Source: a virus (taxonomy: Duplodnaviria > Heunggongvirae > Uroviricota > Caudoviricetes). From it: 3,308 bases of DNA. Shown in pieces: positions 1,668 to 2,048 of this stretch (position 1 is the first letter of the stretch; the number at the start of each line of letters is the position of its first letter). A program made the position numbers and the translations under genes. The notes under the pieces are model-generated. The model was not told the origin of the DNA. It was given only the letters and a program-made list of their open reading frames with translations, and ran no database searches. The stretch covers positions 1 to 3,308 of the IMG/VR virus record IMGVR_UViG_2778261360_000015; one strand, written 5' to 3'.

Positions 1668-1802
1668 TCATCCACGGCAGTGGCACCACATTTCAAACAT
1701 TCGCTTCACAACTTCACGACAGTAGAAGCCATCAACATCTCGCGTCAGGTCATAGCGATTGCCGTAACGCTGGTGGACCCATCGTTCAAATGCTTTATTC
1801 AT
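1668..1802 (-). CDS. Hypothetical small protein, 44 aa, with a C-terminal Cys/His cluster (not in the supplied ORF track)
   Basis: Hand translation of the minus strand gives MNKAFERWVHQRYGNRYDLTRDVDGFYCREVVKRMFEMWCHCRG, with ATG at 1800-1802 and TGA at 1668-1670. AAGGAAG lies 6 nt upstream of the ATG. It starts 3 nt after the stop of the 80-aa ORF and ends 18 nt before the xis ATG, so it fills the gap between the two listed ORFs. No family recognised. Confidence 0.45.
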   Translation of the reverse strand: MNKAFERWVHQRYGNRYDLTRDVDGFYCREVVKRMFEMWCHCRG

Positions 1803-1805
1803 TCT

Positions 1806-2048
1806 TTACTTCCTTTTTATGGCTCGTAATTTTTTCAGGTGCTTTTCCTGCTCAGTGTCCGCGAGAATTTTGCGGTACTCCTGGTGGTCAATATGTTCGA
1901 ACAGGCAGTTTAACTCACCAATGCGTACCCGCCCGGATCGTCCGTCCACCCGTCGAAAGAACACTGAGTGCTCAGTGATGCGAGTAGTCACCACGGGGTA
2001 TCCGGCTCTGTCCGTGTATATCTGACCGCGTTGAATCAAAGCGAACAT
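1806..2048 (-). CDS. Hypothetical small phage protein, 80 aa from the ATG start (possibly DUF4222-like)
   Basis: The supplied ORF 1806..2084 begins at a TTG. The first ATG (2046-2048) gives MFALIQRGQIYTDRAGYPVVTTRITEHSVFFRRVDGRSGRVRIGELNCLFEHID..., preceded by GGGGA 8 nt upstream. The TTG-extended N-terminus would overlap the 27-aa ORF in another frame. The Y.DR.G..V.T.....HSVFFRR.DG motif loosely resembles small DUF4222-type prophage proteins; this is recalled only and weak. Confidence 0.55.
   Translation of the reverse strand: MFALIQRGQIYTDRAGYPVVTTRITEHSVFFRRVDGRSGRVRIGELNCLFEHIDHQEYRKILADTEQEKHLKKLRAIKRK

Follow-up and report, generated by a model that had tools for sequence, protein, structure and literature searches.

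Two small genes that lie side by side just upstream of the excisionase gene in a 3,308-nt stretch of tailed-phage DNA (IMG/VR record IMGVR_UViG_2778261360_000015, positions 1 to 3,308; hereafter the window) and encode proteins of 80 and 44 aa are, as judged from sequence comparisons, mutually independent accessory genes. The best overall explanation, to which we assign a probability of roughly 65%, is that both are independent members of the exo-xis accessory gene set, with the 80-aa protein acting as a solo transcription modulator and the 44-aa protein as a protein-binding adaptor. As found, the pair matters little, its adjacency being no more than a by-product of tight operon packing within a single phage lineage. 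The analysis provides a clear negative, since neither a toxin-antitoxin module, nor a conserved metal-binding protein, nor an obligate pair is present. Both genes are already known and are annotated in public phage records and RefSeq Escherichia coli genomes.

The seven genes of the window are all encoded on the same strand, with junctions that span -4 to +33 nt, and the array is one polycistronic early-left (exo-xis/int) operon, seen at its distal end, of a lambdoid prophage of the VT1-Sakai/BP-4795/YYZ-2008 type. Its features are as follows:

75-1361, minus strand: int, tyrosine integrase of 428 aa (Arm-DNA-bind_2 and Phage_integrase), last gene of the array
1395-1649, minus strand: xis, DUF1233-type excisionase of 84 aa, identified by a family match; 33-nt gap to int
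1668-1802, minus strand: 44-aa gene, phrog_3871; 18-nt gap to xis
1806-2048, minus strand: 80-aa gene, DUF4222 (PF13973) and phrog_285; 3-nt gap to the 44-aa gene
1809-1815, minus strand: AAGGAAG, Shine-Dalgarno-like sequence of the 44-aa gene, within the final codons of the 80-aa gene; read directly
2053-2136, minus strand: 27-aa hydrophobic ORF with a single transmembrane-like segment (MSWPDAIVTLGVVFAAAFVVFSICRWG); 4-nt gap to the 80-aa gene
2056-2060, minus strand: GGGGA, Shine-Dalgarno-like sequence of the 80-aa gene, within the final codons of the 27-aa ORF and 7 nt before ATG 2048; read directly
2133-2624, minus strand: 163-aa Ea22/DUF551-related accessory gene; 4-nt overlap with the 27-aa ORF
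2621-3136, minus strand: 171-aa accessory gene, phrog_9263 and phrog_631 (both of unknown function); 4-nt overlap with the 163-aa gene

The DUF551 profile is matched only at its first 16 positions, at the C-terminus of the 163-aa protein, and the 27-aa ORF is kept in related loci, sandwiched between its 163-aa and 80-aa neighbours. At 94-99% identity, the window corresponds to the int-proximal ends of Escherichia phage PhiR5_1 and of the Stx phages VT1-Sakai, YYZ-2008 and BP-4795, relatives in which both small genes likewise lie beside xis/int and Ea22/DUF551 genes, and related phage records run on into Ea22, TraR/DksA-like and RecT/YqaJ genes. Both genes sit on the strand of the pL transcript, with the recombination genes on one side and xis on the other, and so share the compartment of the lambda and Stx phage exo-xis genes (ea8.5, ea22, orf61, orf63, orf60a and orf73). 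This agrees with the initial annotation, which had placed the pair next to xis and had pointed to host-takeover factors among the gene pairs found there; the accessory region beside xis/int is the home of lysis-lysogeny and host-modulating factors, and exo-xis genes are described as early-expressed modulators of the lysis-lysogeny decision (PMC8614690, PMC3824215). Like those genes, the pair is small, mosaic and non-essential-looking, and the window shares Ea22/DUF551-related genes with the exo-xis regions of lambda and Stx phages. The same compartment is seen at locus L183, a more distant relative discussed below, where the order is RecT-YqaJ-...-Ead_Ea22-DUF551-DUF4222-...-Exc-Int. A sequence relationship of the 80-aa or 44-aa protein to the studied exo-xis proteins of lambda and phi24B was not found. 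A consensus promoter scan, which is weak evidence, detected no sigma-70-like promoter on the minus strand of the window, and Rfam, repeat and promoter/terminator scans of both strands returned nothing relevant. A weak terminator-like hairpin at 1977-1962, within the 80-aa gene, is probably due to chance.

Read on the minus strand, the junction between the two genes is ...GCC ATA AAA AGG AAG TAA AGA ATG AAT AAA..., in which the TAA stop of the 80-aa ORF (1808-1806) is followed by a single AGA codon (1805-1803) and then by the ATG of the 44-aa ORF (1802-1800), and AAGGAAG (1815-1809) ends 6 nt upstream of this ATG. The initial annotation had reported these coordinates, the one-codon gap and a separate AAGGAAG site for the 44-aa gene, and direct reading of the sequence shows this description to be exact. 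The junction (AAAGGAAGTAAAAAATG) recurs unchanged in two related loci (L085/L086), and the two genes are probably translationally coupled. Every homologue of the 80-aa protein begins with MF(A/S/Q/K)LIQRGQ, which sets the start at ATG 2048 and the length at 80 aa; a 92-aa form of this gene, starting from TTG 2084, was rejected because all homologues start at the methionine equivalent to ATG 2048.

Both ORFs are real genes, as purifying selection acts on both frames and pN is well below pS in each. Measured against 18 loci of other species and genera, the 44-aa frame has pN values of 0.04-0.34 and pS values of 0.37-0.97, and for the 80-aa frame pN/pS ranges from 0.13 to 0.33. Two ORFs on the plus strand, at 1640-1978 and 1680-1829, were taken as chance antisense frames, the selection signal having been measured on the minus-strand frames. 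The length of the 44-aa ORF by itself is not above chance, as the 3.3-kb window contains 46 ORFs of at least 25 aa, and several GenBank records leave the gene unannotated; it could on these grounds be viewed as a chance ORF or as an untranslated intergenic tail of the 80-aa gene. However, the frame is retained in Escherichia, Salmonella, Citrobacter, Klebsiella, Pantoea, Serratia and Morganella, with synonymous sites close to saturation and little amino-acid change, it is preceded by a good Shine-Dalgarno sequence at the correct spacing, and its product matches a PHROG family along its entire length (phrog_3871, E = 1.5e-31, residues 1-44 on positions 1-44 of 48) and is modelled with confidence by AF2, all of which leaves a chance origin with hardly any credibility. 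A lack of conservation of the 44-aa frame among relatives, the outcome that had been named in advance as speaking against the proposed pair, was not observed.

The conservation of each gene on its own does not extend to their association. A scan that included one genome per species recovered 21 loci with the 44-aa gene, and a DUF4222 gene is found upstream only in those of E. coli and Shigella. Among the 18 loci outside E. coli, the 44-aa gene follows at least nine different upstream neighbours, namely a 105/115-aa family, phrog_2728, phrog_1001, a 55-aa Cys-rich ORF, LexA-like, NinX-like and NinG genes and ORFs of 75 and 85 aa, and these junctions mostly overlap or measure a few nucleotides. 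None of nine upstream neighbours that were compared with Pfam is a DUF4222 protein. The reverse survey, starting from DUF4222 genes, leads to the same result. Within the group of DUF4222 homologues at 66-71% identity, the gene is followed by a 114-aa gene, a lambda-type Exc gene and int (L183), by a 112-aa gene and a small terminase subunit gene (L185/L186) or by an ORF6N gene (L187/L188). In a subfamily at 45% identity (L189-L196), the next gene encodes an acidic protein of 76-77 aa, and rgdR, the DUF4222 gene of a PICI-type element (L004), is followed by a primase gene. A six-frame profile search detected no relative of the 44-aa gene within 2.5-3 kb of the DUF4222 gene in L004, L183 and L185-L196. 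The neighbourhood survey thus places the pairing in a single phage lineage of E. coli and Shigella and nowhere else.

It had been proposed that the two genes form a conserved partner pair, possibly of the toxin-antitoxin type, which would make them a dedicated two-component module or an obligate heterodimer. The 3-nt gap and the internal Shine-Dalgarno sequence do suggest translational coupling, in all 159 closely related viral contigs with an 80-aa gene the 44-aa gene is adjacent to it (with the 3-nt gap in 155 of the 159), and 619-800 of 5,426 complete E. coli genomes (roughly 11-15%) contain the 381-bp segment with the pair. These adjacent-pair loci, however, represent one closely related lineage: the viral-contig scans returned mostly relatives of at least 93% identity and provide little information on co-occurrence, the diversity described above having come from genome-contig and encoding-contig searches. 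Moreover, alleles of the two genes are shuffled and recombine independently, so that, for example, an 80-aa gene at 62-72% identity to that of the window can lie beside a 44-aa gene at 93-98%. In four contigs, an intact 80-aa gene is accompanied by a nonsense allele of the 44-aa gene, in which codon 30 has changed from GAA to TAA. A toxin-antitoxin reading therefore fails in both directions. The hallmarks of a type II toxin-antitoxin system are likewise missing: the two genes do not co-occur across lineages, the loss of a would-be antidote is evidently tolerated, as seen from the 44-aa nonsense allele beside an intact 80-aa gene and from 44-aa genes that lack DUF4222, and the pair has neither a promoter-like site of its own (in the weak promoter scan) nor a toxin or antitoxin domain in Pfam, NCBIfam or PADLOC. 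In NCBIfam, no match was obtained for the 80-, 44-, 27-, 163- and 171-aa proteins, and PADLOC returned nothing below E = 0.01, its only match, between the 80-aa protein and a methyltransferase model (E = 0.02), being at chance level. The spacing that had been called tight is as described, but it does not single out the pair, as every junction in the operon is equally tight. Given the distribution, the shuffled alleles, the nonsense alleles and the fact that the studied DUF4222 protein RgdR acts alone (PMC3378721), an obligate pair and a toxin-antitoxin system are ruled out, and a two-component module of any kind is very improbable. An interaction of the two proteins that is specific to the E. 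coli lineage may exist.

Mutual independence of the genes leads to separate considerations of their products. The 80-aa protein belongs to the DUF4222 family, with a score of 48.3 bits against PF13973 (cut-off 27, E = 7.2e-13) and residues 4-54 aligned to profile positions 2-53 of 53; its homologues carry precomputed PF13973 assignments, and it is also assigned to phrog_285. The initial statement that neither protein has a recognisable function from sequence accordingly stands for the 44-aa protein and has to be revised for the 80-aa protein. The one DUF4222 member that has been studied is RgdR (ECs1581) of E. coli O157:H7, whose gene lies on CP-933C/OI-51, a cryptic element of the PICI type. 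When supplied on its own from a low-copy plasmid, RgdR activates the LEE1 promoter and type III secretion and represses motility, it binds DNA without sequence specificity, and its RGD tripeptide is reported to be functionally important (PMC3378721). The gene rgdR was present in all E. coli PICIs analysed (PMC6092414). The 80-aa protein thus falls into a well-defined family whose studied member needs no partner, an outcome that the initial annotation had listed as contradicting a required pair.

RgdR and the 80-aa protein match the same positions of PF13973 and share an R-G-x-I-Y-x-D...G motif, in which RGQ of the 80-aa protein (residues 7-9) aligns with the RGD of RgdR (residues 20-22). Both are small proteins with a pI of 10.09 and a lysine/arginine-rich C-terminal tail, and the gene of each belongs to a compact early operon of a mobile element. 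The relationship is nevertheless one at family level, with only ~37% identity over 27 residues, and the link was established via the Pfam profile, as a jackhmmer search that started from the 80-aa protein within the fetched loci missed RgdR. RgdR is 99 aa long and has an N-terminal extension that is absent from the 80-aa protein. In addition, rgdR (L004, 3720-4019) overlaps the start of the PICI primase gene, whereas the 80-aa gene lies between the 27-aa ORF and the 44-aa gene. The RGD tripeptide, after which RgdR is named, and the site upstream of a PICI primase, both of which mark the RgdR subfamily, are thus not found for the 80-aa protein and its gene. Among 30 aligned sequences of the 80-aa subfamily, G8 and Q9 are invariant and R7 is conserved in at least 90%.

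The AF2 model of the 80-aa protein (pLDDT 84) predicts a Tudor/SH3-like five-strand barrel at residues 10-53, followed by a long basic C-terminal helix at residues 55-79. The model resembles in structure the Tudor-like RNA polymerase (RNAP)-interacting domains, such as the UvrD/PcrA C-terminal domain and the CarD RID, as well as the KOW domains of NusG/Spt5; this likeness, at 6-12% identity and with no sequence-level relationship, does not amount to membership. No match of the 80-aa or the 44-aa protein to PDB chain sequences was obtained even at E = 10. By analogy with RgdR, the 80-aa protein may be a solo, low-specificity transcription modulator that associates with nucleic acids or RNAP, in which the barrel would provide an interaction surface and the basic helix a DNA-contacting or oligomerising element. 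A more specific and rather doubtful idea is that DUF4222 proteins, including RgdR and the 80-aa protein, are mimics of the Tudor-like RNAP-interacting domains of CarD, UvrD and Mfd. Such mimics would dock on the RNAP beta lobe, place the basic C-terminal helix on the DNA and retune host promoters. If true, docking of this kind would provide a mechanism for the pleiotropy of RgdR (LEE1 activation and motility repression).

For the 44-aa protein, no match was found in Pfam, NCBIfam, PADLOC or PDB sequences, and the families concerned (phrog_3871, phrog_17609 and phrog_343) are all annotated as 'unknown function', so that membership gives no mechanism. The family comprises 75 clusters at 90% identity and is narrow, as an exhaustive HMMER search of 1.84 billion representative proteins with the 44-aa profile found only 33 (at 50% identity). 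A few long repetitive profile matches (P0154, P0156, P0158 and P0162) look spurious. Two longer proteins (P0165 and P0166) carry the 44-aa module at the N-terminus and also match phrog_343. The named sources of the family are almost all prophages of Enterobacterales, and we think that the two records bearing the names Chryseobacterium and Elizabethkingia reflect contamination or mislabelling. The AF2 model (pLDDT 89) consists of a helix at residues 3-13, a short beta-hairpin and a second helix at residues 30-43. Foldseek searches with this model returned only noise from the PDB (E > 6), and from BFVD one close family member followed by a tail of uncharacterised phage proteins with the same module.

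The 44-aa product had been noted to end in a Cys/His cluster that could coordinate a metal, and C28, C40, H41 and C42 are indeed present in the window copy, but the cluster is not a conserved feature of the family. Among 74 unique sequences, F5 and Y27 are conserved in 100% and E6, R16, Y17, L19, D22, G25, R29, E30, V32, M35 and W39 in at least 93%. The corresponding values for the Cys/His positions are 85% for C28, 80% for C42, 73% for C40, 54% for H41 and 8% for H10. A small zinc- or metal-binding protein would draw support from the 41 of 74 sequences (55%) that have all three Cys, yet in 11 of the 74 there is at most one Cys, members such as those from Morganella are devoid of Cys, and the family lacks a fourth conserved ligand and hence the three to four family-wide Cys/His ligands of a zinc finger or zinc ribbon. 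Furthermore, C40, H41 and C42 lie inside the continuous predicted helix 30-43, where residues at i and i+2 would face apart, unlike in a zinc knuckle, and AF2 folds the protein confidently without a metal. Metal binding through this cluster is consequently improbable. The 44-aa protein would rather be a stand-alone helix-hairpin-helix module, the conserved surface of which is aromatic and charged and not a metal site, and which may function as a small, metal-independent protein-binding adaptor.

A candidate partner of this putative adaptor can be proposed from the gene neighbourhoods. An excisionase gene comes first or second after the 44-aa gene in about 15 of 20 diverse loci, and the excisionases belong to at least five unrelated families (DUF1233, HTH_17-like, Exc PF07825, phrog_66 and phrog_2917). 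At one locus, a PrtN-type gene (PF11112) occupies the excisionase position. On one metagenomic contig (P0159/L181), a 44-aa-like sequence is fused in frame to a DUF1233 Xis. Because the 44-aa gene is usually located directly upstream of several unrelated excisionase families, the excision/integration machinery is its most plausible target. It is possible that the protein modulates excision, and the module could be a portable adaptor whose binding to excisionases would tune the excision of the prophage. A dedicated accessory factor of site-specific recombination, which would modulate Xis or Int with the 80-aa gene being irrelevant to it, is nonetheless unlikely. The fusion comes from a single sample, and another gene intervenes between the 44-aa gene and xis in L093, L099 and L102/L103. 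Loci with the same int/xis type (L193-L196; DUF1233 xis and Arm-DNA-bind_2 integrase) do not carry the 44-aa gene. In two loci (Intestinirhabdus and Serratia), the 44-aa gene belongs to the nin region, where a Q-like antiterminator gene follows it directly and, in one of the two, NinG precedes it. In addition, the 44-aa fold recurs as a module across many unrelated uncharacterised phage proteins, and the protein itself matches no Xis family in Pfam or NCBIfam and is not predicted to form the winged-helix or HTH fold of DNA-binding excisionases, its predicted helix-hairpin-helix fold having no PDB match. The proximity to xis may only reflect life at the end of an accessory array, and the simplest reading is that the 44-aa gene is portable and resides at the ends of both lambdoid accessory-gene arrays.

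Under the explanation favoured here, independent accessory genes, both genes would be cotranscribed with their neighbours at the xis-proximal, distal end of the pL exo-xis operon. The tight packing and probable coupling of the pair are accounted for by the fact that every gene in this operon is so packed, and the coupling would represent operon economy rather than a functional partnership. The individual families are of wider relevance: the RgdR family has an effect on the expression of virulence genes in EHEC, and a paralogue is present in Stx prophages of the window type. Part of the Stx phage exo-xis region could be explained either by Tudor-like RNAP binding of DUF4222 proteins or by a connection of phrog_3871 with Xis.

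Annotation of the 44-aa gene varies among public records. It is missing from phiP27 and from the original VT1-Sakai record, and present in YYZ-2008, BP-4795, PhiR5_1, Fels-1 and RefSeq E. coli genomes. The names used in these records for the two small genes are YYZ_gp03/gp04, BP-4795 ORF3/ORF4 and Fels-1 STM0895.1n, with PGAP calls in the RefSeq E. coli genomes.

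The gene of the 44-aa family occupies different positions among the homologous loci. In two prophages, of Intestinirhabdus alba and Serratia quinivorans (loci L095 and L101, approximately 3001-3144 in their own coordinates), it is situated within the nin region, where a Q-like antiterminator (phrog_753) directly follows on its 3' side in both loci and, in L101, NinG directly precedes it on its 5' side. The family is therefore mobile between both accessory-gene arrays of lambdoid phages, the nin and the exo-xis region. The DUF4222 gene, too, shifts between genome compartments, as L185/L186 (3001-4332) carry a copy of 71% identity two genes 5' of a small terminase subunit and not close to int/xis. 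At two further loci, L183 and L187, no 44-aa gene follows DUF4222; here, the spacer on its 3' side measures approximately 120-140 nt and contains a GC-rich hairpin with a T-run (...CCTCGCACTCGCGGGGATTTCTTTTAT..., approximately 3290-3330), which on its sequence looks like an intrinsic terminator.

The 44-aa family itself comprises two length variants. The copy in the window (compared at window positions 1668-1670) encodes 44 aa and terminates in ...CRG*, whereas most homologues are 48 aa long and possess an additional LNVV- or LSVV-type tail. Four viral contigs (L131, L144, L156 and L167; 2747-2836) contain a premature stop at codon 30 (GAA to TAA), while the adjoining 80-aa gene is intact in each of them. 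Additionally, enterobacterial-type 44-aa genes with 77-84% identity were detected in a contig of Chryseobacterium sp. 18061 (L094) and in Elizabethkingia phage EKP1 (H45). The neighbouring genes in these records, which are labelled as Flavobacteriia or their phages, are typical lambdoid genes, and the labels may reflect contamination or mislabelled records.

Two proteins combine sequence types that also occur in this array. At L181 (3962-4336), a 44-aa-family sequence and a DUF1233 excisionase are fused in frame with no stop codon between them, and the gene for the resulting protein (P0159) is called at 4001-4336. The contig is derived from one sample only (Logan DRR526068), and the fusion could be a Rosetta-stone hint or merely a lost stop codon. 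The 159-aa protein P0167 harbors both a DUF551 and a DUF4222 domain and is either a read-through product or a fusion of two gene types that adjoin.

Three further ORFs of the minus-strand array are located 5' of the 80-aa gene:

2053-2136, minus strand: hydrophobic ORF of 27 aa (MSWPDAIVTLGVVFAAAFVVFSICRWG), between the 163-aa and 80-aa genes
2133-2624, minus strand: gene for a 163-aa protein, with a DUF551 match restricted to the first 16 profile positions at its extreme C-terminus
2621-3136, minus strand: gene for a 171-aa protein, matching the function-unknown families phrog_9263/phrog_631

The 27-aa ORF probably represents a real gene for a small membrane peptide. It is joined to its upstream neighbour by an ATGA overlap, is separated from its downstream neighbour by a 4-nt gap and is kept in 74 of the first 105 loci collected. 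It reappears at L181 (3878-3958), immediately 5' of the 44-aa-like gene and with no intervening DUF4222. The 163-aa protein is shorter than its counterpart in the closely related Escherichia phage PhiR5_1, where the 'Ea22' gene encodes 252 aa (759 nt including the stop codon), and judged by sequence, its gene looks like an Ea22/DUF551 variant that arose by deletion or mosaicism. Finally, the 171-aa protein has weak PHROG matches to phrog_5429 (E = 0.005), a family annotated as 'DNA repair protein', and presents a D...E-x-K-like stretch (DAMGF...LIEAKCS), which suggests a putative PD-(D/E)XK nuclease.
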